Shown here: in pieces, positions 3,559 to 63,103 of the stretch | Numbering within the stretch: position 1 is the first letter of the stretch | How the letters are laid out: each line of letters opens with the position of its first letter | Assembly (NCBI GenBank): GCA_016182105.1 | Contig: JACOXZ010000011.1 | Span: forward strand, 1,218 to 65,217 | Length of the DNA: 64,000 nucleotides | Origin: Candidatus Liptonbacteria bacterium | GTDB lineage: Bacteria > Patescibacteriota > Minisyncoccia > UBA6257 > 2-01-FULL-56-20 | Direction: 5' to 3' | The notes under the pieces: generated by a model | The model's input: only the letters and a program-made list of their open reading frames with translations | What the model was told of the DNA's origin: nothing | Databases searched by the model: none | Position numbers and translations under genes: made by a program

Positions 3559-5315
3559 GGAACCGGCAGGGACTCACTTTTATTGATGTTGTTGTTTCGA
3601 TCGGCATCATTGGTATTCTCTTTGTCGGCATTTTTGCCACCTATTCCTCGATTTTGGACGTTATAAACAATTCCGAGAGACGAGGAGCGGCAGCCTCTAT
3701 CTTAAATAGGCAAATCGAGATTATCCGAAATCTGCCCTATAACCAGGTGGGCACAGTAGGCGGCGTGCCTTCCGGTATTATTCCTCAGGAACAGACTCTT
3801 CAGGCCTCGGGACTTACATTCGTCATAAAAACCACTGTTCGGAACATTGACGATCCATATGATGGCACCTTGGGCGGGAACCCCAATGACACAGCGCCGG
3901 CCGACTATAAGCTCGCGGAGCTCGAAGTCAGCTGCTCAAGCTGCGGGAGTTTCGTGCCATTGATTTTGACTACTACAGTCTCTCCTAAAAATTTGGAAGC
4001 CGCGAGCACGAACGGATCTATCTTCGTGAATGTCTTCGATGCGAGCGGAATCGGCATCTCGGGAGTCACGGTTCATGTGGTAAACGCAAGCATTACCCCG
4101 CCCCTAGACCTTTTTGACACGACAAACGCAAGCGGCGTTCTCCAACTTGTGGGCGTGTCAACAAGCACGCAGTCTTATCGGATTGACGTGAGTAAAACCG
4201 GCTATTCATCCGACAAAACCTACCAGCCGGGCGACCCCTCAAACCCTAATCCTCTGAAACCCCATGCGACGGTCGCGGCTCAAACAGTAACCCAAGTGAG
4301 TTTCGCGATTGACCGGGTGAGCACATTAAACGTTCGGACCTCGGACGTTGTCTGTTCGTCCGTCTCCGGACAAGATTTCACTCTTCAGGGGTCTAAACTT
4401 ATCGGTACTGGTCCGGATGTCTTGAAATTTTCGACGTCCTCGGCCACTGACGGGAGCGGCCTCAAGACTTTCAATAATCTTGAATGGGATACCTACAACA
4501 TCAGTCGTTCGGGAACGACTAATTACCTGGTCGGCACCATGCCTTTCTCTCCGTTAACCATAAACCCCAGTTCAACTCAAGATTTTCGATTTATTCTTGA
4601 GCCGTCTTCACCGGATGGGCTCCTTGTTATTGTTAAAGATTCGGGAAGCGGCGCAGTTATAAACGGCGCTTCAGTGAATCTCTCCAAGACGGGGTTCTCC
4701 CAGACTTTGATTACCGGACGCAATTTTTTGCGGCAAACCGATTGGTCGGCCGGTGAATATTCTAGTCAAGACGGCGGCATTGATGTTTCCTCGCCTGCCG
4801 GCACTTTAAAACTTCTTCTCTCGGCTTCGAGTACTTACAGCACCAGCACTGTGAGTTGGCTCACCTCGAATACTTTCAATGTCGGTTCTTCAACGGCCAC
4901 TTATTATACTTTAAGCTGGAGCCCGACCACCCAACCGCCCCAAACCGGCCCTGACAGCTTGAAATTCCAAATCGCTTCGAACAATGACAACGCCACTTGG
5001 AATTTTGTTGGCCCGGACGGCATGGCCGGGAGTTATTACACGACAAACGGCGCGGGCGTAGCCGGCCACAACAACCGTCGTTTTCTACGATATAAAGTAT
5101 TTATGAAAACGGATGACGAGAACTTTACGCCTTCACTCGATGATCTAAGCATTGAATTCAACTCCATCTGCGTGCCTGGCGGCCAGGTTCTTTTTAGCGG
5201 TCTTACCGCCGACGCTTATAGTATCACAGCCACGGCCGTTGGTTATTCTTTAGCATCAAGTTCTGTTTCGGTCGTAAATGGCTTCAATCAAACCGAGGTT
5301 TTAATGTCGCCTTAA
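3555..5315 (+). CDS. large prepilin-type N-terminal domain protein (pilus tip or minor pilin-like)
   Basis: N-terminus MRNRQGLTFIDVVVSIGIIGILFV is a class III signal (GLTFID plus hydrophobic helix). 586 aa, S/T-rich. Confidence 0.6.
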   Translation: MRNRQGLTFIDVVVSIGIIGILFVGIFATYSSILDVINNSERRGAAASILNRQIEIIRNLPYNQVGTVGGVPSGIIPQEQTLQASGLTFVIKTTVRNIDDPYDGTLGGNPNDTAPADYKLAELEVSCSSCGSFVPLILTTTVSPKNLEAASTNGSIFVNVFDASGIGISGVTVHVVNASITPPLDLFDTTNASGVLQLVGVSTSTQSYRIDVSKTGYSSDKTYQPGDPSNPNPLKPHATVAAQTVTQVSFAIDRVSTLNVRTSDVVCSSVSGQDFTLQGSKLIGTGPDVLKFSTSSATDGSGLKTFNNLEWDTYNISRSGTTNYLVGTMPFSPLTINPSSTQDFRFILEPSSPDGLLVIVKDSGSGAVINGASVNLSKTGFSQTLITGRNFLRQTDWSAGEYSSQDGGIDVSSPAGTLKLLLSASSTYSTSTVSWLTSNTFNVGSSTATYYTLSWSPTTQPPQTGPDSLKFQIASNNDNATWNFVGPDGMAGSYYTTNGAGVAGHNNRRFLRYKVFMKTDDENFTPSLDDLSIEFNSICVPGGQVLFSGLTADAYSITATAVGYSLASSSVSVVNGFNQTEVLMSP

Positions 5316-5321
5316 AATAAA

Positions 5322-5924
5322 ATGAATATCAAAAAACTAGCTGGGTTTACCTTTATCGAAGTCGTGATCGTGATCGCGATTTTCGTGGTGATTTTCACTG
5401 TGATTGCGAGCTTTGGCGAGAATACCAGTTTGCTTTCGAACCTAATAAACAAAAGCTTGCAAGCGGAACAAGACCTAAGGCAGACTTTCCAGGTTATAGT
5501 AACTGAAATCCGTTCAGCAGGGCCCTCAAGTCTTGGCGCCTATCCGATTGAGTCGGCCGCTACTTCGTCTTTCGCTTTTTTCAGCGACATTGACGAGGAC
5601 GGCGTTTTTGAGCGGGTAAGATACTTCGTGGGGACTAGCACGCTCGAGAAAGGAGTGATTGAGCCTATTGGGAACCCATTGGTTTACGCGACCTCGAGCG
5701 AGTCTGTAAAAATAGCAGTTAATTACCTGCTTATGGCCTCGAGTACTTTTGAGTATTATGACGCTAATTACACCGGGCTAGAGGCGTCGCTTAGCACGCC
5801 TATAGACGTAACCAAGATCAGGATCGTTAAAGTCACGGTTACGGCTGACGTTAACCCAGGAGCGGCCCCGAAGCCAGTGACCTTCACCAACATCATTAAC
5901 GTGAGAAATCTTCGAAGCAACTGA
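5322..5924 (+). CDS. pseudopilin / minor pilin (prepilin-type N-terminus)
   Basis: The sequence ...GFTFIEVVIVIAIFVVIF sits near the N-terminus. Confidence 0.6.
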   Translation: MNIKKLAGFTFIEVVIVIAIFVVIFTVIASFGENTSLLSNLINKSLQAEQDLRQTFQVIVTEIRSAGPSSLGAYPIESAATSSFAFFSDIDEDGVFERVRYFVGTSTLEKGVIEPIGNPLVYATSSESVKIAVNYLLMASSTFEYYDANYTGLEASLSTPIDVTKIRIVKVTVTADVNPGAAPKPVTFTNIINVRNLRSN

Positions 5925-7955: not shown

Positions 7956-9076
7956 GGCTTTTCGGTTTTCAAGTTTTCAATTAAAGCGATTTCCAGGGGT
8001 ACCATCTGAAAAGGGCTATAGCGCATTTCGCTGTAGGCCCGAATTAGATCTTTAGTGAGTCTCAAGAGGCGGTCAAGATCTACGGCCTCGCTCAGTTTTT
8101 TAAGCTGGACTATCTCCTCTTTGGTGAGTTCTGATTGAAAAACTTCTTCTAAGGCAGGATTCACCTTGAGCGACATAATTTTACGGGAATAATGGATCAG
8201 GTCTTTCGCTAGCTGGACTAAATTGTGGCCTTCCTCATTCAGTTTCGCGAGATAATCAAGGCTGCTTTTTAAATCACGGGCAATAATTAGGCTCGCAAGT
8301 CCGCTTACCTTTCTGAAACCCACCCGACCCGTGAGGAGCTCCGCGGTTTTAAGGTCAACCTTGTTCTTCAGTGAGGCGAGCTGATCAAGGAGCGATTCCG
8401 CGTCGCGGAGGGAGCCATCGCCCGAGGCCGCCACGAGTTCCAAGGCGGCTTCGTCAATCTCGATTTTTTCGGCTTTGGCAATTGCCTTGAGTTTCTCGAT
8501 AATCTTAGTTTTAGGGAGTTTTTTGAATAAAAATCTTTGGGTTCTTGAGGTGATGGTCGGAGGCATTTTTTCATACTCGGTCGTCGCGAGGATCAAGACA
8601 GCATGTTTCGGAGGCTCCTCTAGGGTCTTTAAGAGGGCGTTAAAAGCCGGGCCGGTTAACATATGAGCCTCGTCGATAATATAAACCTTAAAATCGCTTC
8701 CGGCAGGCGAGGCGTGGATGCTTTCCTTTAAGTTCCTGATTTCGTCAATGCCGCGGTTAGAGGCCGCGTCAATCTCGATCACATCAAAAGAAGTGCCCGC
8801 GTTGATTTCACTGCAAGAACGGCACTCGTTGCATGGCTCGCCTTGTTCTTGGAATTTCGGGTCTTTGGCCCGGAGTTCACAGTTCAAAAGTTTGGCAATG
8901 AGCCTTGCGGTCGTGGTTTTGCCGGTCCCTCGGGGTCCATAGAAAAGATAAGCGTGGCCGATCCGATTTTGACGAGCCGCGTTTTTTAAAATCTCGACAT
9001 TCGTCTCCTGACCGAGGAGGTCTCCTAGTTTCTGCGGACGATATTTGCGGTAGAGAGCCAGAGCCATCAGCTGCAT
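7952..9076 (-). CDS. dnaX: DNA polymerase III subunit gamma/tau
   Basis: Walker A GPRGTGKTTTARL, the zinc module CNECRSC, and DEAHML. Confidence 0.85.
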   Translation of the reverse strand: MQLMALALYRKYRPQKLGDLLGQETNVEILKNAARQNRIGHAYLFYGPRGTGKTTTARLIAKLLNCELRAKDPKFQEQGEPCNECRSCSEINAGTSFDVIEIDAASNRGIDEIRNLKESIHASPAGSDFKVYIIDEAHMLTGPAFNALLKTLEEPPKHAVLILATTEYEKMPPTITSRTQRFLFKKLPKTKIIEKLKAIAKAEKIEIDEAALELVAASGDGSLRDAESLLDQLASLKNKVDLKTAELLTGRVGFRKVSGLASLIIARDLKSSLDYLAKLNEEGHNLVQLAKDLIHYSRKIMSLKVNPALEEVFQSELTKEEIVQLKKLSEAVDLDRLLRLTKDLIRAYSEMRYSPFQMVPLEIALIENLKTEKP

Positions 9077-9128
9077 TATAAGGAATTTATCCTTCCGTGG
9101 CCAGCGGCTATATCAAATTTTCGACCTA

Positions 9129-9158
9129 TTGACAAAATAGCTAGTTATAGTATATAAT
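9129..9158 (+). promoter_or_regulatory. sigma70-like promoter (TTGACA, 18-nt spacer, TATAAT) driving cassette A
   Basis: TTGACA at 9129-9134 and TATAAT at 9153-9158. Confidence 0.55.
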
Positions 9159-9317
9159 TAATCTGTTCTTTGATAATTCATATTCTAGTTTTTCAATCGC
9201 ATGAGGCGAGCGTTTAGCGAGTTAGATGAATAGCTCTTTAAGCACTCGCCTTATCACGAGGCGCGTCTCTCTCCGGAGGGAGTCCGGTAAGTTCACAACG
9301 AAAAGGAGAACGACGAT

Positions 9318-10191
9318 GACGACACAGTCGATCACGTCCGTCACAGACGGTCAGAAAAAGCAGTACCTGCGGTTCGTCGAGGACGCCGCCGACAAGGCGC
9401 TCGTGGAGGCCGTTCTCGACAAGGACGGTCTCCAGCGAGTCATCGAGAACGGGGACGACCTGCAGGCGGCCATCGTGGCCAAGCTCAAGGAGCTCTCGGT
9501 CACGAACGAGTACGCTGACGAGGAGGTCGGATCGAACTACGGTTACCTCTCGGGTTATAAGCCCAAGGGTATCGCCGAGCAGATCAAGACCCTCCGCAAG
9601 CTGTTCCCGTCGATCGGTACCGCTGACGAGCAGATCGCCAGCAAGCCGCTTCCCGCCAGTGCCGAGGGATGGTTCGCCATTCCGAGGTACGAGCTGGTCG
9701 CGGCGAGCTACAACGACGCGGTTCTCGCGGTGCTCGAGCTGACCAAGAAGGATCGCAATGGCAAGTTCTACAACTGGTGCGAGGGCCACCTCGGCCCGCA
9801 GTACCTGCACCAGACGGAGCGAGCCGTGCGTTCTCTGAAGAAGATCGGCGAAGAGCAGAAGGGTCACGACATCTTGGTCGTTGCGGCGCAGTTTGGTCTC
9901 CGTCACCGGGGCCGTTCCGTCCGTCGGGCTCGCTCCACTATGAACTCCTCGGAGTTCGGACTCGGCGCGTTCGCGGTCGGGGTCATACTGCTGACCCATC
10001 CCGAGCGTCTGAAGCACTACGATGACCTCTGGATCGACTGCGCAGGAGATGAGTACTCTCCTGACGCCGATGGCCGGTTCGACGAGGCCCCGCTCTTCGA
10101 CTTCGACGACGGCGAGGTGGAGTTCTTCACCCACTGGGTGGGCAATGCCCGCGAGTTCTATGGCTCTGCGTCGGGCTTTCTCCCGCAGTAG
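9318..10191 (+). CDS. GC-rich orphan acidic protein (291 aa), no recognisable family
   Basis: SD aaGGAGaacgacg precedes the ATG. Local GC is about 62% against about 46% in flanking sequence. A hairpin terminator follows. The antisense ORF 9238-10278 is judged to be a GC artefact. Confidence 0.55.
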
Positions 10192-10263
10192 TCGCTCCTC
10201 GAAACCTCGAACGCTTGGGTCTTTCGATCGTTTATCGCTTGATCCCTTGCGTTCGCTACAACT

Positions 10264-10312
10264 GGGGGTTATCCACACGGCACACGTGGATAACCCCTTT
10301 TTCTTTTTTTAA
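10264..10312 (+). terminator. rho-independent terminator
   Basis: Hairpin gggggttatccacacg-gcac-acgtggataacccc followed by a T-run. Confidence 0.75.
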
Positions 10313-10348
10313 TTTTTGATTTTAAGAATTTTCATATACAGCAAATAC

Positions 10349-10462
10349 AATTTCCGCGCGGCTATGAGTCCGAGCGGGCATGGTCTCCGACCGCGATCGG
10401 AGGAGCGCAGGACTCATCGCCAGCGAAGCCGCACGCTGGGCGGCTGAGCGGTAGCGGAAATT
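10349..10462. repeat. GC-rich long hairpin element, copy A (closing inverted repeat aatttccgc/gcggaaatt)
   Basis: Nested inverted repeats. Both ends are homologous to the element at 11882-12150. Confidence 0.6.
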
Positions 10463-10514
10463 ATATTTGCTATATTTAAGCAGATTTCGCATAATTTTAA
10501 ATATCTTTTATGAA

Positions 10515-10629
10515 TCCCGTTAGAAGCCGCGATCGCGTTGCAAATAAATTAAATATCAACCAAATGCGTAATCGTTACAATAAAATAAACCTGCAGACTT
10601 GCGCAAATCGCGATCTGCTTCTAACGGGA
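10515..10629. repeat. family-1 miniature TIR element, copy E2
   Basis: Same 22-nt TIRs as E1. The element ends at ATG 10629. Confidence 0.8.
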
Positions 10630-19054: not shown

Positions 19055-20933
19055 AGCCAAAAATTTTACCGATTTCGAGGAGTCGTTAAATGGCGGCTCA
19101 CGCGAGGAAGTCATAGAGGTGCCCTTGAGCAGCCAGCCGCTTTTTTATACGGGCTTATTAATTTTTCTTTTTGCCGCGCTTGCCGTAGGCCGCGTTCTTT
19201 TCTTGGGTGTAGTCTCCGGCGAAATCTATAAAGCCAGGGCCGAGGCCAATTCTAGCGAGCTCGAGCGGCTTCAAGCGCCGAGGGGTCTCGTCTTCGCGAG
19301 AGGCGGAGAAGTTTTGGCAGAAAACCAGCCGGTTTTCCTGGCCGTCTTGAAGACCAGCGAATTTCTAAAAGACGAGTCTATCCAAGAAAAAACGCTTGCT
19401 TCAATCAAGGAGATTATGGGAATTGATAGAGAACTAGTCTGGAGTCTGATCAAAGAACGAGACCAAGAAAGAATAGGCGACCCAATTGTTCTTAGCGCCG
19501 ACCTAAGCCAAACTGAGCTAATTCAGCTTAAAAGCCTCAATTCCTTGTCCCTGGTCGTAGAGAGCGGTTTCAAGAGGAATTATCCGGACGGCCCAATTTT
19601 TTCTTCCATAATTGGCTATACCGGACTCCCTACCGCCCTAGATCTTAGAGAGAATGCCGAACTTACCGGCGTGGATTTTGTTGGCAAATCCGGCCTAGAG
19701 GCTTTTTACGATAAAGATCTCCGCGGAAAAAACGGATTTTTAGCGTATCTCCGCGATGCCAAAGGTGAAATCTTCGAAGAAAAAAAGGAGAGGCCAGTCG
19801 AGGCAGGAGCGGCTCTCAATTTAACAATTGACGCTGAATTTCAGCGCTATTTTTACCACAGGATGCAAGAGGGACTCACCTCATTAGGGAGAAACTCCGG
19901 CGTTGGTCTGGCGTTAAATCCGAGAAACGGCGAGGTTTTGGCCCTGATTAATTTACCGAGCTACGACCCCAATATTTTCTTGGCTCCAGAGAAAAACGAA
20001 GAGAGGTTGAAACTCTTGAATTCACCGGAGACGCCCCTGTTCAATCGGGCTATAAGCGGCACCTACAGCCCAGGTTCCACAATTAAGCCGCTCGTGGCTC
20101 TCGCGGCTTTGAGCGAAGGCGTGATCAACACCGAAAAACAAATTTATTCCCCAGGCTATCTTGAAATTCCGAATCCTTATGACCCCCAGAAACCCACTCT
20201 TTTCCTCGATTGGCGGCCCCAGGGCTGGGTGAATTTAGAGCGGGCCATTGCTCAGTCCTCGAACGTTTATTTCTACACTGTAGGCGGTGGCTTCGGCGAT
20301 ATTAAGGGGCTGGGGATCAAACGTTTAAACGACTGGTGGCAAAAATTTAATTTAGGAAAGCTCACTGGCATTGATTTACCTTGGGAGGCCAAGGGACTTT
20401 TGCCCACAGTCGAGGAAAAAGAAAAAAGAACCGGCACGCCCTGGCTTTTGGGCGATACTTATAACGTCTCAATTGGCCAGGGAGATCTCTTGCTTACTCC
20501 TCTTCAGATTTTAAACTACGTTGCCGCAATTGGAAACGGCGGGAAAATCTACCGGCCGTTTCTTGTCTCGAATTTCAAACACTCCGAAGTTGCTAGCGAC
20601 CTTTCTAATCTTCAAACTCAAATTTCTGAAGTGGAGAAAGGCATGAAGGCCGCAGTGAATTTTCCCTTAGGCACCGCCTACCTCCTTCACGATCTTCAGG
20701 TCTCGGTCGCTGCAAAAACCGGAACAGCCCAGATTTTGTCGAACACCCAGGCCAACGCCTTCTTTGTCGGTTTTATGCCGGCCGAGGATCCTGAAATTGT
20801 TATCCTGATTTTAGTTGAACGTTCGCGCGAAGGCAGTTTAAACACCGTGCCTATCGCTAAAGACGTGCTTAACTGGTACTACTTAAACCGGATCCCTCAC
20901 CCTTCAGAGATTTTATCTACGTCATCAAAATGA
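19002..20933 (+). CDS. mrdA: penicillin-binding protein 2 (transpeptidase)
   Basis: STIKP (SxxK), SSN and KTGTA motifs. The last 11 codons and the stop codon lie inside family-2 repeat F2-1. Confidence 0.8.
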   Translation: MLSQLFLSLKPSMPRKYKAKNFTDFEESLNGGSREEVIEVPLSSQPLFYTGLLIFLFAALAVGRVLFLGVVSGEIYKARAEANSSELERLQAPRGLVFARGGEVLAENQPVFLAVLKTSEFLKDESIQEKTLASIKEIMGIDRELVWSLIKERDQERIGDPIVLSADLSQTELIQLKSLNSLSLVVESGFKRNYPDGPIFSSIIGYTGLPTALDLRENAELTGVDFVGKSGLEAFYDKDLRGKNGFLAYLRDAKGEIFEEKKERPVEAGAALNLTIDAEFQRYFYHRMQEGLTSLGRNSGVGLALNPRNGEVLALINLPSYDPNIFLAPEKNEERLKLLNSPETPLFNRAISGTYSPGSTIKPLVALAALSEGVINTEKQIYSPGYLEIPNPYDPQKPTLFLDWRPQGWVNLERAIAQSSNVYFYTVGGGFGDIKGLGIKRLNDWWQKFNLGKLTGIDLPWEAKGLLPTVEEKEKRTGTPWLLGDTYNVSIGQGDLLLTPLQILNYVAAIGNGGKIYRPFLVSNFKHSEVASDLSNLQTQISEVEKGMKAAVNFPLGTAYLLHDLQVSVAAKTGTAQILSNTQANAFFVGFMPAEDPEIVILILVERSREGSLNTVPIAKDVLNWYYLNRIPHPSEILSTSSK

Positions 20934-21023
20934 GTACTACAGACAAGACGTTTCCTTTCAAAGTCGCTCGGCAAAAGAGATCACACCATGAAAAATCGTG
21001 CATGATCTCTGAATGGTGAGGGA
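20893..21023. repeat. family-2 miniature TIR element, copy F2-1 (about 131 bp; TIR ccctcacccttcagagat / atctctgaa.ggtgaggg)
   Basis: Homologous to the copies at 34724 and 62973. It ends at an ATG. Confidence 0.8.
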
Positions 21024-21884: not shown

Positions 21885-21912
21885 CCGTCCGCCTCAGGCG
21901 GACGGTTTTTTT
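21885..21912. terminator. bidirectional rho-independent terminator between rplU and pyrG
   Basis: Hairpin ccgtccgcc-tcag-gcggacgg flanked by T/A runs on both strands. Confidence 0.7.
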
Positions 21913-23533
21913 ATTTCTTCGCAATTGCCGCTTTAATGAACGCCACAAAAAGCGGATGCGGCGCCATTGGGCGCGATTTGAGCTCGGGGTGAAATTGGGT
22001 GCCTACGAAGAACGGATGGTTCTTCAGCTCGATGATTTCCACGAGATTTGTTTCAGGGTTCACACCGGAGAAAACTAAGCCTGCCTTCTCTAGCTTTTCT
22101 CGATACTTGTTGTTGAACTCATAGCGATGGCGGTGGCGCTCTCTCACCATATTTGTTCTATACGCTTTTTCGGCGATTGTGCCTTTCGTGATCCGGCACT
22201 TGTATGCGCCAAGCCGCATCGAGCCCCCGTAGTGTTCTTGGGCGATTTTCCGCGCTTGCTCCGGTAAAACAGCAATCACGGGGTGGGGCGTTTTGGGGTC
22301 GATTTCTGTGGTGTACGCGCCTTTGAGCTTGGCAATATGCCGCGCAAATTCGATTGTTGCAAGCTGCATTCCGTAGCAGAGGCCAAAGTAGGGGATTTTA
22401 TGCTCCCGCGCGTAGCCGATTACCTTGATTTTCCCTTCAATACCGCGGCCCCCAAATCCGCCAGGAACGATAATTCCGGCGTAGCTCTCCAAGGTCGTGA
22501 GGGCCCGGGGATTCGTCTCAAAGACCTCCGCGTTAATCCAATCGATCACCGGCTTCCGTCCAAGTTCCCAGGCCGCGTGCTTTATGGCTTCGATCACCGA
22601 GATATAAGAATCACTCAAAGTAAAGTCGCCGGTTGCGAAGTATTTGCCGACGATGCCGATCCTCACTGGTTTTTTAGCGCGCTGAATTTTTCTCTGGAGC
22701 TTACGCCAAGTTGAACCGTCTCTTTTTCGCGGCTTGAGGCTGAATTTTTTCAAAATTCGGTCGGCGAGTTTCTCCTTCTCAAAATTTAGCGGCACCTCGT
22801 AGATGTTTTTGATGTCGGGCGCCGAGATGATGTCTTCAGGCAAGACGTTGCAGAAGATTGAAATTTTTTCTTTGCGAGGTTTGTCAATCGGGATCACCGA
22901 GCGCGCGAGGATGATGTCTGGTTGTAGTCCGGCGGAGTTCAGGGTCCTCACGGCGTACTGGGTCGGTTTTGTTTTCATCTCGCCCAAATTTTGGGGTACG
23001 GGGAGGTAGCTCACGAGGACGAGGATGAGAGAGGCGGGATCTTTAAGCTTCATAATACGAGCGGCTTCAAGGAAAAGGAGGTTCTGGTACTCGCCAGCGG
23101 TGCCGCCTATCTCAACCAGCGCAAACTGCGCTTTGGATTTTTTGGCGGCAAGCTTGATGCGTCGGATGACCTCTTCCGGAATGTGCGGCACGACTTCCAC
23201 GCACTTGCCGCCGTACTCGAGCCGCCGCTCCCGGTCAATCACTGTCTGGTAGACTAATCCGGTCGTCATATAATTCGGCCGAAGGATATTCGTGTCGAGG
23301 AATCGTTCGTAGTTGCCGATATCCTGGTCACACTCGAGTCCGTCCTCGGTCACAAACACCTCCCCGTGCTCAACGGGGTTCATGGTGCCGGCATCAACGT
23401 TTATGTAGGGATCGATTTTGACTGCGGTGACTCGAAAGCCCCGGTCCTTAAGTAGGGCTGCAATGGCGGCAGAGCCGACGCCCTTGCCGATACCCGACAT
23501 TACACCACCCACAACGAAAATGTATCGCGTCAT
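21911..23533 (-). CDS. pyrG: CTP synthase
   Basis: N-terminal GGVMSGIGKG and a C-terminal glutamine amidotransferase domain with GLCYGMQ. Confidence 0.9.
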   Translation of the reverse strand: MTRYIFVVGGVMSGIGKGVGSAAIAALLKDRGFRVTAVKIDPYINVDAGTMNPVEHGEVFVTEDGLECDQDIGNYERFLDTNILRPNYMTTGLVYQTVIDRERRLEYGGKCVEVVPHIPEEVIRRIKLAAKKSKAQFALVEIGGTAGEYQNLLFLEAARIMKLKDPASLILVLVSYLPVPQNLGEMKTKPTQYAVRTLNSAGLQPDIILARSVIPIDKPRKEKISIFCNVLPEDIISAPDIKNIYEVPLNFEKEKLADRILKKFSLKPRKRDGSTWRKLQRKIQRAKKPVRIGIVGKYFATGDFTLSDSYISVIEAIKHAAWELGRKPVIDWINAEVFETNPRALTTLESYAGIIVPGGFGGRGIEGKIKVIGYAREHKIPYFGLCYGMQLATIEFARHIAKLKGAYTTEIDPKTPHPVIAVLPEQARKIAQEHYGGSMRLGAYKCRITKGTIAEKAYRTNMVRERHRHRYEFNNKYREKLEKAGLVFSGVNPETNLVEIIELKNHPFFVGTQFHPELKSRPMAPHPLFVAFIKAAIAKK

Positions 23534-30290: not shown

Positions 30291-30719
30291 ATGAAAACCA
30301 AGCCCCTGTTTGATATCTCAAAAATTATCATCTACACCGACGGCGGCGCTCGCGGAAATCCTGGGCCAGCCGCAATCGGTGTGGTAGTTGCCGACAGAGA
30401 ATATGGCGAATATATCGGCGAAAAGACTAATAACCAGGCCGAATACGAAGCCGTGATTTTTGCCCTGAAGAAAGTGAAACAGCTTATTGGCAAAGTAAAG
30501 GCGAAGAAAGCGGAAATTGAAGTGCGGATGGACTCCGAGCTAATCGTGAAGCAATTAAACGGCGAATATAAAATCAAAGAGCCGGAACTCCAGCCGCTTT
30601 TTGTGAAAGTTTGGAATTTAAGGATGGATTTCGGGAAAATTAATTTTGTACATATCTCACGGGAGCAGAATCGTCGATCTGATAGATTGGTAAATTCGGT
30701 TCTTGACAAGAGGCCGTAG
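30291..30719 (+). CDS. rnhA: ribonuclease HI
   Basis: TDGGARGNPGPAAIGVV and the catalytic acidic residues. Confidence 0.8.
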   Translation: MKTKPLFDISKIIIYTDGGARGNPGPAAIGVVVADREYGEYIGEKTNNQAEYEAVIFALKKVKQLIGKVKAKKAEIEVRMDSELIVKQLNGEYKIKEPELQPLFVKVWNLRMDFGKINFVHISREQNRRSDRLVNSVLDKRP

Positions 30720-30736
30720 GGATGTATAATTATTGT

Positions 30737-31081
30737 GGTAATTCAGACGGTTACCTTACTAGATATTTATCTAGTGGGGAGGAAAGTCGGGACACCTTCT
30801 CGGGTTTTGCCCGAGGAAAAGTAGCGGCTAACAGCCGTCGAGTGAAAACTTAGAGGTGCGAACAGTGACGTCGCAGTTCGAAAGAACTGCGAGGACCCCA
30901 TCCTAACGTAGACTGGTCCAGCTCCGCTATAAGGATAAAAAGGCGGAGGTGAAACGGCTAAATCCTTACTGGGTGCAAGGCCGTGCTCCGACCCATGTCG
31001 GAGAGTGCTGCATGAACCCGAGAGTAATCGAGGGTCCAGAGAAATTGCCGTTAAATACAGAATCCCGCTTATGAATTGCCA
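30737..31081 (+). ncRNA. rnpB: RNase P RNA (bacterial type)
   Basis: GGAGGAAAGUCGGGAC (P4 5' strand), ...GGUGAAA..., and ACAGAAUCCCGCUUAU (P4 3' strand). P1 pairs ggtaattc with gaattgcc. TATAAT lies 7 nt upstream and a strong terminator hairpin sits at 31083-31125. Confidence 0.75.
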
Positions 31082-31115
31082 ACCCCGCCCCTCCATTGGA
31101 GGGGCGGGGTAGTTT

Positions 31116-34723: not shown

Positions 34724-34855
34724 CCCCCCCACTCTTCAGAGATTTTCTCTACGTCATCAAAATGAGTACTATAGACAAAATGTTTCATTTCAAGGCCGTT
34801 CGGCAGATGAGATTATGCTACGAAAAATCGTGCATGATCTCTGAAGAGTGAGGGA
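34724..34855. repeat. family-2 miniature TIR element, copy F2-2
   Basis: It begins immediately after the TGA of the upstream response regulator and ends at the ATG of the next one. Confidence 0.8.
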
Positions 34856-41735: not shown

Positions 41736-42062
41736 ATGCTTCAATTCATTTTAACCAACATCTTAATGATTTCTTTGGGAACGATCCTTTATCTTGTGGC
41801 GAGAACCTTGCCAAGGATTGACGGCGAGCCCTCGGGAAAGGAGAATATTCTGGATCGCTTGGCTAATTCCGAGATACCGGAAAAGGTAGACGTGGTCCTC
41901 AATAGTTTTTTGGCAAAGTTCTTGAGACGGCTCAAAATTTTCCTTATGAAAATTGACAATTTTGTGAGCGAAAGGCTGAAGAAAATTTCGGTTAATGGCG
42001 GTAGTTCCAAGACTAAAATTGACTTTAAGGGCATAAACGAAGAAAATAAGACTGAAGAATAA
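41736..42062 (+). CDS. hypothetical small membrane protein
   Basis: 108 aa with an N-terminal TM. Preceded by the G-poor repeat ctaaaacct. Confidence 0.35.
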   Translation: MLQFILTNILMISLGTILYLVARTLPRIDGEPSGKENILDRLANSEIPEKVDVVLNSFLAKFLRRLKIFLMKIDNFVSERLKKISVNGGSSKTKIDFKGINEENKTEE

Positions 42063-42065
42063 AGC

Positions 42066-42153
42066 GCGCAGGTAGTCCCGTAGGGGGCGGGAGTGGTCTG
42101 TAAAACCATTGCCCATCTGGGCCCCGTGAGTTCGACTCTCACCCTGCGCACCA
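42066..42153 (+). tRNA. tRNA-Tyr (anticodon GUA), class II with a long variable arm, CCA encoded
   Basis: Acceptor gcgcagg/cctgcgc, anticodon loop CUGUAAA, variable arm gccca-tc-tgggc, T arm gtgag-ttcgact-ctcac, then ACCA. Confidence 0.65.
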
Positions 42154-42393
42154 CGTTGGAAAAGTCAATGCCTCGCGGCGCGGAACGCGCCGCTCGGCGA
42201 CCAAATCGTAAGGATTTTTCGGGGCAAAAAGAAATTCCCGATTCCATTAAAAGCAGAAAAGAAAAATTTTTCAAACACTCCCAAGAGGTGGCAAGCCGCC
42301 TCTTGACTTTTGTGACGTAATATGCTATCTTTAGGTGAAATCTGGGCATAGTGCTTAAATGGAATCAAATCGTACCTTGAAAGGAGAAAGACG

Positions 42394-42558
42394 ATGTACA
42401 ATATCACACGGCCGTTGTTCGGAGGAATGGCCATTCCCGCCCCTTTCTTTGCCATGAATGCGGACAGTTCAGAGAAGGCGTTGGCATGGGTCGGGTATGG
42501 CATCATCTTCGCCCTGCTCTCTCTCGTGTCGGCTGTCGCCGCTCGCGACGAGAAGTAA
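42394..42558 (+). CDS. GC-rich 54-aa hydrophobic peptide (cassette B ORF)
   Basis: SD aaaGGAGaaagacg precedes the ATG. Hydrophobic stretch ALAWVGYGIIFALLSLVSAVAA. Followed by a terminator. Confidence 0.4.
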   Translation: MYNITRPLFGGMAIPAPFFAMNADSSEKALAWVGYGIIFALLSLVSAVAARDEK

Positions 42559-42580
42559 GCAGACCTTTCTTCGTGCCATA

Positions 42581-42617
42581 ACGGGGATTCGCGCAACGCG
42601 GTCCCCGTTTCTTTTTT
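42581..42617 (+). terminator. rho-independent terminator of cassette B
   Basis: Hairpin acggggattcgcgcaacgcggtccccgt followed by a T-run and the conserved AT-rich linker. Confidence 0.65.
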
Positions 42618-42672
42618 AATTTTTGATTTAAAAGTTTTCATAAAAGAATTTGCCGCCAAAGAAAAACTTGAA

Positions 42673-42832
42673 ATTGTCAGCGGTGCGGCTCCCCGATACC
42701 ATCCGCCTTCGGCGGAGCTACGGGGCAGGCCGCCGCATTTTCGGATTTTCGCGGGGGGCTTTCCTCGCTCCGACGTTACGTCGGAGCGAAATGCGCTGTG
42801 CCCCGTAGTAAGCTTTGCTTTACTACTGGGGT
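42673..42832. repeat. GC-rich structured element of cassette B (multiple hairpins, e.g. cgctccgacg-ttac-gtcggagcg)
   Basis: It occupies the same position relative to the AT linker as element A. Sequence similarity to A and C is weak. Confidence 0.4.
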
Positions 42833-42974
42833 TCGGATTACTTTAAGAATACTGTATAAGTAGCAAAAGCACTGCCGTAACTGAAGCGGTTTGTAACAAA
42901 ACATACTATTCTATCGTATATTTAAATAAATCTTTCAAAGGTCGTTAAATCCAACCAGACATAACACGAGAGAT

Positions 42975-44459
42975 ATGAAAAAAGTATTGTTAAGTGTAGT
43001 GCTTGCTGGTTTTCTTGGACTATCCATCTTCCCCTTTGGAGTCTTGGCACAGACCAGCCAAAATACCCAGGCGCTCCTTGACCAAATCCAAGCGCTCCTG
43101 AAGAGGGTTCAGGACCTGCAGAATCAGATAAACCAGCTCCAAGTACAGAAGCTGGAGGCCGCGACACAGGTCTCAAACCTCGTTAAATCGCTGAAGCAGG
43201 GTGATTCAGGAGAAAACGTGAAGACCCTTCAAGCCCTTCTTGCGGCTGATTCGGATATCTATCCAGAGGGCCTGATGTCGGGCTACTACGGGAGACTTAC
43301 TGCCGCTGCCGTGAAACGCTTCCAGACGAAGCACAGCATTGAGGCTGTGGGCGTGGTTGGGCCGAAGACGCTAAAGAAGTTGAATGAGGTCCTCCAGAAA
43401 AATCCGGTTGCTATCGAGGTTTCGAGTTCAACTGGGGAAAGACGGCCCTGCGCGATTGTGCCACCCGGGCATTTGATCGCCCCTGGATGGCTCAAAAAGA
43501 ATGCGCCGCCGGTCGTGCCTCCCTGCCAAGTGCTCCCGCCGGGCATATTGACGAAGCTCGGTCAGGCGACCACGACTCCCGACACAACGGCGCCCGTGAT
43601 TTCCGGCATTGCTACGCAAAATGTGACAGTGAATACTGCGACAGTCGCCTGGGCGACCAATGAGCTTGCGACGAGCAAGGTCTATTACGGGACTTCCACT
43701 CCGCTCAGCCTCGGCACGGCGAGCATGGTTACGGACAACACCCTCATTACTAGCCACGCGATTGGCTTGAGCGGTCTTGCCGCGACCACCACTTATTACT
43801 ACGTAGTCGAATCCAAAGATGCGGCCGGAAACACAGCCACCTCCACGGAACGGTCTTTTACCACTACGGCGCAGGCTGACGTAACAGCGCCGAGCATCAC
43901 ATCCTATTCAGTTGTTCCGGCGACCTCGTCAGCTATCATTTCCTGGGTGACGAATGAAACGGCTGATTCGCAGGTTTTCTACGACACCTCGACTAGCTAC
44001 GGCCTCGCGACGCCGCTTGAAACCCCGCTCTTGACAAGTCATTCCCAAACACTAACGGGACTTACGGCTAGCACTACCTATTACTTCCAGATTCGTTCTA
44101 GGGACGCGGCTTTGAATCTCGGGACAGCGACCGGGCAGTTCACGACCCTAGCTCTTCCTGATACAACCGCGCCGGTAATCTCGGCGGTTACCGCGACCGG
44201 CGTCAATAGCTCTTCGGCCACTATCGTTTGGACGACTGACGAACCTTCAACAAGTAAGGTATTTTACGGAACGGTTTTCCCAATAGACACCGCTACAGCC
44301 GCCTTTGTTAGCTCTGCCGCGCTAGTCACAAGCCACTCGATTCCGCTTACGGGTTTGAATGCGAGCACGACTTACTACTATACCGTTCAGTCAGCGGACG
44401 CAAACGCCAATACCGCCACTTCCGCGACTTCGAGCCAGCAGTTCACGACCGGTTTGTAG
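42975..44459 (+). CDS. secreted protein with a peptidoglycan-binding domain and three fibronectin-III-like repeats
   Basis: Signal peptide, a PG_binding_1-like segment (YYGRLTAAAVKRFQ), and three repeats of about 95 aa. Confidence 0.6.
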   Translation: MKKVLLSVVLAGFLGLSIFPFGVLAQTSQNTQALLDQIQALLKRVQDLQNQINQLQVQKLEAATQVSNLVKSLKQGDSGENVKTLQALLAADSDIYPEGLMSGYYGRLTAAAVKRFQTKHSIEAVGVVGPKTLKKLNEVLQKNPVAIEVSSSTGERRPCAIVPPGHLIAPGWLKKNAPPVVPPCQVLPPGILTKLGQATTTPDTTAPVISGIATQNVTVNTATVAWATNELATSKVYYGTSTPLSLGTASMVTDNTLITSHAIGLSGLAATTTYYYVVESKDAAGNTATSTERSFTTTAQADVTAPSITSYSVVPATSSAIISWVTNETADSQVFYDTSTSYGLATPLETPLLTSHSQTLTGLTASTTYYFQIRSRDAALNLGTATGQFTTLALPDTTAPVISAVTATGVNSSSATIVWTTDEPSTSKVFYGTVFPIDTATAAFVSSAALVTSHSIPLTGLNASTTYYYTVQSADANANTATSATSSQQFTTGL

Positions 44460-62972: not shown

Positions 62973-63103
62973 ATCCCCCACCTTTCGGAGATTTCTCCCC
63001 GTCATCAAAACGAAGTTTGGACACAAAGCATTTGTTTTCAAGGTCGCCTTAGACTTGAGACCGTGCTTCAGAAAGAAGCGTATGATCTCTGAAAGGTGAG
63101 GGA
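62973..63103. repeat. family-2 miniature TIR element, copy F2-3
   Basis: It ends at the ATG of sodA. Confidence 0.75.

Follow-up and report, generated by a model that had tools for sequence, protein, structure and literature searches.

A putative membrane-peptide unit next to tRNA-Tyr in a Candidatus Liptonbacteria genome: probably resident, with a 3' end homologous to that of a diversity-generating retroelement variable-protein gene

The stretch of DNA analyzed here, in the following referred to as the window, comprises 64 kb of a metagenome-assembled contig of Candidatus Liptonbacteria, a member of the candidate phyla radiation (CPR)/Parcubacteria. Directly downstream of its tRNA-Tyr gene lies cassette B, a unit of only ~0.7 kb in total with a single open reading frame (ORF) of 54 aa, and 32 kb apart from it lies cassette A, which carries a gene for a much longer variable protein of the diversity-generating retroelement (DGR) type. 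An initial annotation had interpreted B as an island-like cassette that was inserted at the 3' end of the tRNA gene and belongs to a modular family with A. All features that it had described behind the tRNA, including the 54-aa ORF, a hairpin terminator and a multi-hairpin region, are present where it had placed them (Table 1), and its central observation, namely that A and B have non-coding parts in common while their ORFs are unrelated, holds beyond chance. The proposed insertion, however, is not supported. On balance, the evidence tips slightly towards another explanation, according to which B is a resident, self-contained unit for the expression of a small membrane protein rather than an integrated island, and has swapped its 3' module with an A-type unit.

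The resemblance between the two cassettes is most extensive behind their ORFs. The linker positions 42603-42642 match positions 10295-10336 at 36 of 42 nt (85.7%), in agreement with the ~85% identity noted at the outset, and the two 3' flanks, aligned locally, reach a score of 31, which none of 500 dinucleotide shuffles attained (null distribution 13.6 +/- 2.0). The similarity starts ~25 nt before the terminator hairpin, where the alignment extends over CCTT.C.TTCG...AAC-GGGG, spans the T-tract and ends ~30 nt beyond it. An alignment of eight A-type and B-type 3' ends retains the skeleton TTCG...GGGG-hairpin-CCCC-TTT-CTTTTTT-AAT, and exact copies of the 14-mer core TTAATTTTTGATTT are found in the window only at A and B. 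Together, these alignments show the terminator context, T-tract and spacer of B to be homologous to the predicted 3' end of cassette A.

A second point of resemblance lies at the start of the ORFs. The string AAAGGAGAAAGACGATG around the Shine-Dalgarno (SD) sequence and the start codon agrees with that of cassette A at 16 of 17 positions. The near-identity of the two ribosome-binding sites (RBSs) had thus been described correctly, but as a match on its own it is weak, with 10 of 500 shuffles being as good (p about 0.02). It gains meaning only because this genome hardly uses SD sites: among 64 gene starts in the window, only seven have a 4-mer core at positions -17 to -5 and four a 5-mer, and AAAGGAGAA at a distance of five or six nt from the ATG is found only at A and B (2 of 64 starts). 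The two ORFs also have the highest GC content at third codon positions (GC3) among the real ORFs of the window, 0.83 for A and 0.71 for B, against ~0.52 for the host, ~0.45-0.60 for the neighbors and 0.48 for the S2 gene. Their homologues elsewhere have GC3 values of 0.65-0.85, which, except in locus L007, lie above the surrounding GC content wherever there is enough flanking sequence (homologous loci are given by their numbers throughout). Of the common regulatory skeleton that had been proposed for the two cassettes, the SD string and the terminator/spacer module therefore stand, but the 5' leaders are unrelated outside the SD/start string, and the GC-rich structures behind the spacers have neither sequence nor architecture in common.

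It is very improbable that this resemblance merely reflects compositional convergence of terminators and SD sites. Such convergence would be in line with the weakness of the RBS match by itself and with a 19-base motif of the spacer, which gives >119 chance matches across unrelated genomes. These come from a search of 185,579 species genomes for the linker pattern ATTTTTGATTT N4-7 TTTTCATA; its complexity is too low, and it returned chance matches only, in unrelated AT-rich genomes. Yet the two cassettes agree in 18 consecutive bases plus TTTTCATA, the other terminators of the window lack the exact core, and the similarity includes sequence before the hairpin. Convergence is largely refuted because of the shuffle test described above.

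The peptide encoded by ORF B has a family of its own. Homologues of 51-56 aa are found on five other contigs, which represent four further distinct loci (L006 duplicates L005), bringing the known B-type loci to five including the window, all on short contigs (homologues P0121-P0123 and L130). A metagenome scan with the peptide alignment contributed one new locus to these, L130, and an exhaustive HMMER profile search of 1.8 billion representative proteins yielded eight further clusters. Their members are all 51-57 aa long and have the same layout as ORF B, in which a short N-terminus leads into two hydrophobic segments, the second of them a helix, that are separated by a polar turn and followed by a charged tail. 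For diverged pairs from the five loci, the ratio of nonsynonymous to synonymous substitutions (dN/dS) is 0.13-0.30, with dS >1 in distant pairs, and the core of the C-terminal helix, LAWVGYGIIF.LLS, is invariant in a four-sequence alignment. ORF B, which contains the tryptic peptide ALAWVGYGIIFALLSLVSAVAAR, has no match in Pfam, NCBIfam or PADLOC and only a non-significant best match in PHROG (E 0.13), and the viral contigs of IMG/VR and the GenBank phages contain no match to cassette B. These comparisons show that ORF B is a real gene, that its sequence is kept by purifying selection, and that the predicted membrane peptides to which its product belongs form a rare family without annotation, the CPR affiliation of which is established for the contig of the window alone. 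Our best guess is that it encodes a small membrane-embedded accessory or toxin-like peptide. The family is made up of conserved small proteins that are mostly missed by gene callers, and the copy in the window is missing from the protein collection.

With its predicted promoter and predicted terminator around a single ORF of host-atypical composition, cassette B has the makeup of an autonomous transcription unit. Each of the B-type loci has its own SD sequence and its own terminator, and a recognizable promoter is also found in the window and in L130. The segment of B that begins at the stop codon and includes the whole T-tract is 96.6% identical to L008 and 80% identical to L007, and its hairpin is nearly invariant; the spacer behind it is retained in L008, and only its first part in L007. 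At the other end, the hairpin that closes the tRNA trailer overlaps the promoter. Within the leader, the segments ATCGT...ACGAT and CCTT...AAGG are able to pair across the SD sequence and the start codon. The CCTT that can pair with the SD sequence is found in the window, L007 and L005, and the ATCGT pairing across the start codon in the window and L007, which suggests that these short upstream complements may mask the translation start. In the reading that we favor, a sigma-70-type promoter would drive a leader of ~60 nt in which the strong SD sequence and the start codon are masked by the upstream complements, the 54-aa two-helix peptide would be translated, and the mRNA would end at a strong intrinsic terminator, as predicted from the consensus match and the folds.

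Many of these features would also be expected if B were a module akin to type I toxin-antitoxin systems, in which RNA structure or a small RNA close by restrains the translation of a hydrophobic, toxic peptide. We consider this unlikely. A membrane helix and a charged C-terminal tail in a product of 54 aa, and the promoter and terminator that the unit has of its own, would fit a toxin, as would the possible hairpin around the SD sequence and start codon, which recurs in the window, L007 and L005, and the variable context of the unit, which in L008 adjoins a PemK/MazF toxin gene. By contrast, there is no antisense (minus-strand) promoter in 42560-42850, the complementarity between the downstream RNA and the leader is at chance level (15 of 40 shuffles are as good), the terminator is unidirectional, and neither PADLOC nor Pfam provides a toxin match. 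The strong purifying selection over deep divergence would also fit an ordinary membrane protein.

The idea that site-specific integration at the tRNA-Tyr 3' end brought in B, as a cassette or mini-island of a mobile family that includes A, has its appeal: B lies directly 3' of the tRNA, an A-type cassette in L001 likewise follows tRNA-Gln, B-type units have different flanks on different contigs, and composition and SD sites are atypical for the host. Nevertheless, we regard it as quite improbable. A 24-mer from the 3' end of the tRNA, searched with up to three mismatches, is found only at the tRNA itself. The repeated tRNA 3' fragment that had been proposed as a check at the right border of B was not found; the last 48 nt of the tRNA align to the next 950 nt on both strands at chance level only (167 of 500 shuffles are as good), and the left flank has no copy at the right border. 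There is no integrase or recombinase among the genes neighboring B, and the unit itself carries just the one ORF. Furthermore, L007 starts inside a tRNA, behind which the trailer (83% identical), the leader (70%) and the peptide gene (84%) follow in the same order as in the window, with the same terminator hairpin behind them. Because of this identical arrangement, the order of tRNA and peptide gene appears to be shared by descent and not to result from a recent insertion. The alignment with L007 differs in the segment at 42165-42225 directly behind tRNA-Tyr, which is missing there, has AAAAG at both borders and accounts for ~60 extra nt in the window.

On its right side, the unit is more variable. 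L008 can be aligned through the spacer and the GC-rich region to ~42845, where a PemK-like gene follows, and in L007 the similarity ends within the spacer, with tRNA-His behind it. B units are consequently flanked by a gene for a peptidoglycan (PG)-binding protein in the window, the PemK-like gene in L008, tRNA-His in L007 and MreB in L005. In genomes that rearrange this fast, such varying contexts are no proof of mobility. In the search for relatives with an uninterrupted junction between tRNA-Tyr and the PG-binding gene, no full-length homologue of the encoded protein exceeded 54% identity, and none of the three loci inspected is syntenic. Beyond its tRNA-His, L007 (650-2063) contains a ~550-nt GC-rich, highly structured non-coding stretch, followed by a GC-rich ORF of 275 aa without a family match. 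This protein is unrelated to protein A and may belong to another stand-alone GC-rich unit.

The surroundings of cassette B in the window are core chromosome, with S2, EF-Ts and a 108-aa ORF upstream and the PG-binding/FN3 protein (42975-44459) downstream. A location in a prophage or mobile element was rejected in view of these housekeeping neighbors and the lack of viral or phage matches. We also rejected the possibility that the two copies of the spacer are the attL and attR sites of a 32-kb element, as the interval between them consists of housekeeping DNA (aminoacyl-tRNA synthetases, CTP synthase, PGK, PBP2, ScpA and MnmA), and the integron attC model, as neither GC-rich structure has R'' (RYYYAAC) or R' (GTTRRRY) core sites and there is no integrase. 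In sum, every hallmark of a recent site-specific integration that could be tested is lacking and the evidence is against it; a position beside a tRNA alone is no evidence of integration. What remains of the proposed modular family is the shared modular 3' end, whereas the integrated cassette is unproven.

If B is resident, the exchange of its 3' end may have left traces in its closest relatives, and the comparison with L008 points in this direction. Across the whole coding sequence, the two are 80% identical, with the differences concentrated in the 5' part, while the terminator and spacer are 97% identical. Within the aligned stretches (42394-42646 in the window and 7-250 in L008), divergence is clearly higher in the first ~25 codons than in the remainder of the gene, and the dN/dS ratio of this pair is 0.83. 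This mosaic suggests a recombination that moved the 3' end as a block, with a breakpoint inside the small gene. Under the resident-unit explanation, both cassettes would be expressed autonomously, in the manner of 'morons', and would have a foreign or exchangeable origin, with recombination within this lineage having swapped their 3' module. The GC-rich hairpins behind the spacer would then be either RNA structures of the + strand or insulating hairpins that were appended to the 3' module.

Several observations weigh against this explanation. The term 'resident' rests on a single relative, L007, the tRNA of which is cut off and cannot be typed. The -35 hexamer of cassette B is changed to TTTATT in that locus and is hence not conserved. 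The spacer is absent from the A loci L004, L128 and L129, and L001 bears only a partial resemblance to it. The GC-rich region of L008 is no more stable than its shuffles (z -0.18), which leaves a conserved structure weakly supported. Finally, the high GC3 and the SD sites could reflect selection on expression rather than a foreign origin.

The other partner in this comparison, ORF A, is identical in sequence to the NCBI protein HYT13_01540, encoded on a contig of 65,767 bp, and has >2,840 homologues in many lineages, at ~60-79% identity. It has no match in Pfam, PADLOC or PHROG and only a non-significant one in NCBIfam. Protein alignments display an invariant body and a variable C-terminus; the variable region (VR) corresponds to approximately the last 130 nt of the gene (10059-10189) and is matched by foreign template repeats (TRs). 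In L001, L004 and L129, a second copy of the last ~125 nt of the gene is present, with 22, 31 and 23 A-to-N changes, respectively, and the differences between TR and VR are almost confined to adenines of the TR copy, with few others inside the core. Moreover, bAvd adjoins the A-type gene in L004 and L129, and L004 also has an RVT_1 reverse transcriptase (RT). Because the homologous loci combine adenine-specific TR mismatches with bAvd and RVT_1 neighbors, ORF A is, by homology, a DGR variable protein. The TR/VR pairs and the RT and Avd genes are features of the family and not of the copy in the window, which has no TR, RT or Avd within the 64 kb. Variable-protein genes of this kind circulate widely among CPR and other bacteria. 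An AlphaFold model of protein A, based on 12 sequences, had a mean predicted local distance difference test (pLDDT) score of 53 and was too poor for fold comparisons.

We also considered cassette B as a DGR target and rejected this, as it has no variable region and no TR match in the window. Its coding sequence is not repeated there either, and the differences between its homologues are not limited to one block; their C-terminal half is invariant.

The non-coding flanks of the A family, comprising a consensus promoter and the untranslated regions (UTRs), are conserved as well, although the loci differ in their contexts. The two-hairpin leader is seen in the window, L001 (3860-4000), L004 (3870-4000), L128 (270-448) and L129 (2870-3000), and the terminator hairpin is retained in the same four loci. 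Between stop codon and terminator (10192-10263 in the window), the family has 5-7 CTTG(A/G) repeats, which are kept across distant hosts. Neither the leader nor these repeats are found in Rfam.

What follows the A terminator, on the other hand, varies between loci: the LOOT RNA in L004 and L129, a TR-bearing RNA in L001, palindromic repeats in L128, and the spacer with a 125-nt GC-rich structure in the window. LOOT (RF03000, 73-80 bits) is located directly behind the terminator, at 5066-5185 in L004 and 4052-4172 in L129. The structure of cassette A occupies this very position, and AGCAAATACAA is common to A in the window and the spacer before LOOT in L129; the covariance model, however, rejected the structure as a LOOT RNA. 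Independently of this, the occurrence of LOOT behind a DGR variable-protein gene in two independent bAvd-bearing loci suggests a link between LOOT and this class of DGRs. We found no description of the function of LOOT in the literature, including the main text of the paper describing it. In L001, the A-type cassette directly follows tRNA-Gln (3614-3685) and precedes a DGR RNA with a template repeat (4990-5420), and there is no RT gene within 4 kb. In L128, near-identical GTCAACGTGGCAGGTTGACGTGGCAGGTTGAGGTTGAC palindromic repeats lie on both sides of the A-type gene (345-400 and 1435-1480), and an ORF for an IS200-like Y1 transposase adjoins (1520-1900; PF01797), which resembles a transposase associated with repetitive extragenic palindromes (REPs), known as RAYT. 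We take this to be a REP-like element invading the UTRs of the cassette.

The GC-rich region of cassette B can be compared with that of L008. In the window, it has an extra hairpin at the tip of stem P1 and one additional hairpin, and between the same flanks one stem reads GCTCCGACGTTACGTCGGAGC in the window and GCCGCCGCAGGCGGC in L008. P1 contains G-U pairs, and two one-sided changes (G-U to G-C and C-G to U-G) keep the pairing on the + strand. This favors an RNA that is read from that strand, although the case, based on two sequences only, is weak. The covariance models of Rfam 15, applied with E values up to 10 to 42000-43000 and 9050-10600, gave no relevant match (including LOOT, 6S, SRP and tmRNA), and the hairpins of the two regions do not form a repeated sequence family within the window. 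A stem of the form CTCCGA(C)...(G)TCGGAG occurs with differing loops in the A structure (10385-10402), the RNase P RNA (30986-31003) and the B structure (42768-42786), at a chance expectation of 0.04. We rejected it as a REP-like family, since two other GC-rich stems also recur three times.

These regions raise the possibility that the spacer and the GC-rich structure constitute a unit of their own, be it a small RNA gene promoted from the AT-rich spacer or an element that settles behind terminators. This is conceivable, if doubtful. In its favor, LOOT follows the A terminator after an AT-rich spacer in L004 and L129, with AGCAAATACAA in common with A in the window, both structures of the window are far more stable than shuffles, and in L008 the structure goes with B and not with the downstream gene; the G-U pairs and one-sided changes of P1 also fit an RNA of the + strand. 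The A spacer has a promoter, albeit a weak one (TTAAGA-18-TACAAT). The B spacer, however, lacks a convincing promoter, with no acceptable -10/-35 pair, the structures of A and B are unlike each other and without an Rfam match, L007 has the start of the spacer without a structure behind it, and just two copies exist in 64 kb.

One may also go further than the resident-unit explanation and regard A and B as representatives of a class of self-contained expression cassettes that has not been described before and is exchanged horizontally among SD-poor CPR genomes. Their GC3-rich ORFs would be preceded by a strong promoter and by a structured leader with a canonical SD sequence, and an interchangeable 3' module, composed of the conserved terminator context, the AT-rich spacer and a variable structured RNA, would be the unit of recombination or recognition. 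As part of this reading, the 3' module might be linked to the DGR machinery of cassette A or to LOOT-like small RNAs. We would not expect such a class to exist, but if the 3' module did act as a recombination or recognition unit, it would provide a new route by which genes could acquire non-coding ends from one another. In itself, B is one of many small unannotated membrane-peptide genes in CPR bacteria and as such a modest curiosity. Its interest lies in the fact that the only two strongly SD-led, GC3-rich genes of the window share a terminator/spacer module, and that one of them is a DGR target, which offers a starting point for studying how CPR genomes package and exchange genes that are foreign or expressed in a special way.

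Table 1. Coordinates of the annotated features in the window, with the evidence on which each is based (dG, folding free energy; z, stability relative to shuffled sequences)
Feature	Position	Strand	Evidence
tRNA-Tyr (GTA), 88 nt, CCA encoded	42066-42153	+	ARAGORN; Rfam tRNA model, 37 bits
GC-rich hairpin-containing segment, ~60 nt, directly 3' of tRNA-Tyr	42165-42225	+	dG -27.1 kcal/mol, z -2.1
Conserved tRNA trailer	42231-42305	+	83% identical to L007
Terminator-like hairpin closing the trailer, followed by T-rich sequence	42282-42305	+	Terminator scan; dG -17.4 kcal/mol, z -3.6
Cassette B, predicted sigma-70-like promoter TTGACT-17-TATCTT with TG (extended -10)	42303-42331	+	Promoter scan, consensus match only
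Cassette B, 5' leader with SD site AAAGGAGAA (42380-42388)	42332-42393	+	Sequence, folds, SD list
ORF B, 54 aa, two predicted hydrophobic helices and charged tail (…LAWVGYGIIFALLSLVSAVAARDEK)	42394-42558	+	Translation, homologues
Cassette B, predicted intrinsic terminator, GGGG...CCCC hairpin (42580-42609) and T-tract	42580-42617	+	dG -19.7 kcal/mol, z -4.0
Cassette B, AT-rich spacer ('linker') AATTTTTGATTTAAAAGTTTTCATAAAAG, common to cassette A	42618-42646	+	
Cassette B, GC-rich multi-hairpin region	42651-42832	+	-91.8 kcal/mol, z -4.8
Stem P1 with apical hairpin; further hairpins	42651-42758; 42765-42789, 42800-42830	+	
Cassette A, predicted promoter TTGACA-18-TATAAT, 12/12 matches	9129-9158	+	Promoter scan
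Cassette A, 5' leader with two hairpins, SD AAAGGAGAA at 9302	9165-9315	+	Conserved in homologous loci
ORF A, 291 aa, GC3 0.83, predicted DGR variable protein	9316-10191	+	Homologues, TR mismatches
Cassette A, predicted terminator GGGGTTATCCAC...GTGGATAACCCC	10264-10298	+	dG -22.6 kcal/mol, z -6.1
Cassette A, terminator, T-tract and AT-rich spacer common to B	10264-10342	+	
Cassette A, GC-rich closed multi-branch structure	10343-10471	+	z -4.9; self inverted repeat
RNase P RNA gene, bacterial class A; promoter; terminator	30735-31086; 30704-30732; 31082-31110	+	

The genome in which these cassettes reside is compact, with long ORFs covering ~90% of the window, and has an overall GC content of ~47%. 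Its RNase P RNA was overlooked by the default scan, as its 93 bits fall short of the Rfam gathering score of 100, and was found in the same permissive mode (E 4e-29) that gave no relevant match for the GC-rich regions; the mechanically predicted 109-aa ORF on the minus strand that overlaps it (30767-31096) is spurious. Three segments of ~95 nt (20930-21022, 34762-34854 and 63010-63102) are ~80% alike. Each of them begins with an ATG that may start an ORF of 29 codons and terminates in a common GATCTCTGAA.GGTGAGGGATG junction, just upstream of ORFs of 113, 135 and 212 aa, which gives them the appearance of a conserved leader or of a module of two genes that is repeated. Furthermore, in many genes of the window a TATAAT-like box precedes the ATG by 5-15 nt (e.g. 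1216, 21911-23533 on the minus strand, 23561 and 62410), which suggests that leaderless mRNAs or mRNAs with short leaders are widespread in this genome.

Compared with known systems, cassette B combines traits of several without matching any of them in full. Like tRNA-targeting integrative islands, it lies immediately 3' of a tRNA gene, but an integrase and a duplication of the tRNA 3' end are both lacking, and the unit measures only ~0.7 kb. Like an integron gene cassette, it consists of an ORF followed by an imperfect palindromic structure of variable sequence; unlike one, it has its own promoter and neither an IntI nor an array around it. The GC-rich hairpins behind the terminator, which vary between relatives, are reminiscent of REPs and the mosaic elements built from them (BIMEs), which are mobilized by RAYTs, and the A homologue in L128 does have palindromic repeats and a Y1 transposase. 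In the window, however, there is no repeated hairpin family, and no RAYT was found near A or B or among the ORFs scanned. B resembles the type I systems of Fst, TxpA, BsrG and Hok in that it stands alone, encodes a small hydrophobic peptide that ends in a charged tail, and has a leader structured around the SD sequence. It differs from them in the two hydrophobic segments of its peptide, in that this peptide belongs to an unannotated family, and in that a search for antisense or complementary RNA found none. In DGRs of the Bordetella phage BPP-1 type, target recognition is mediated by the initiation of mutagenic homing (IMH) sequence plus a hairpin (PMC3240598). Cassette A is one of the DGR variable-protein genes with a 3' hairpin, and B shares its terminator context and spacer, but has no variable region and no template repeat. 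Finally, the 'morons' of phages and prophages are autonomous combinations of promoter, ORF and terminator that deviate in composition and are inserted between genes. B differs from them in that it does not lie in a prophage, has no match in IMG/VR or among GenBank phages, and in at least one relative has been passed on along with the tRNA. It is nevertheless like them in its own promoter and terminator, its single small ORF, its atypical composition and translation signals, and its variable context. Overall, the results for A and B fit autonomous, exchangeable expression units better than an integrase-driven cassette system.

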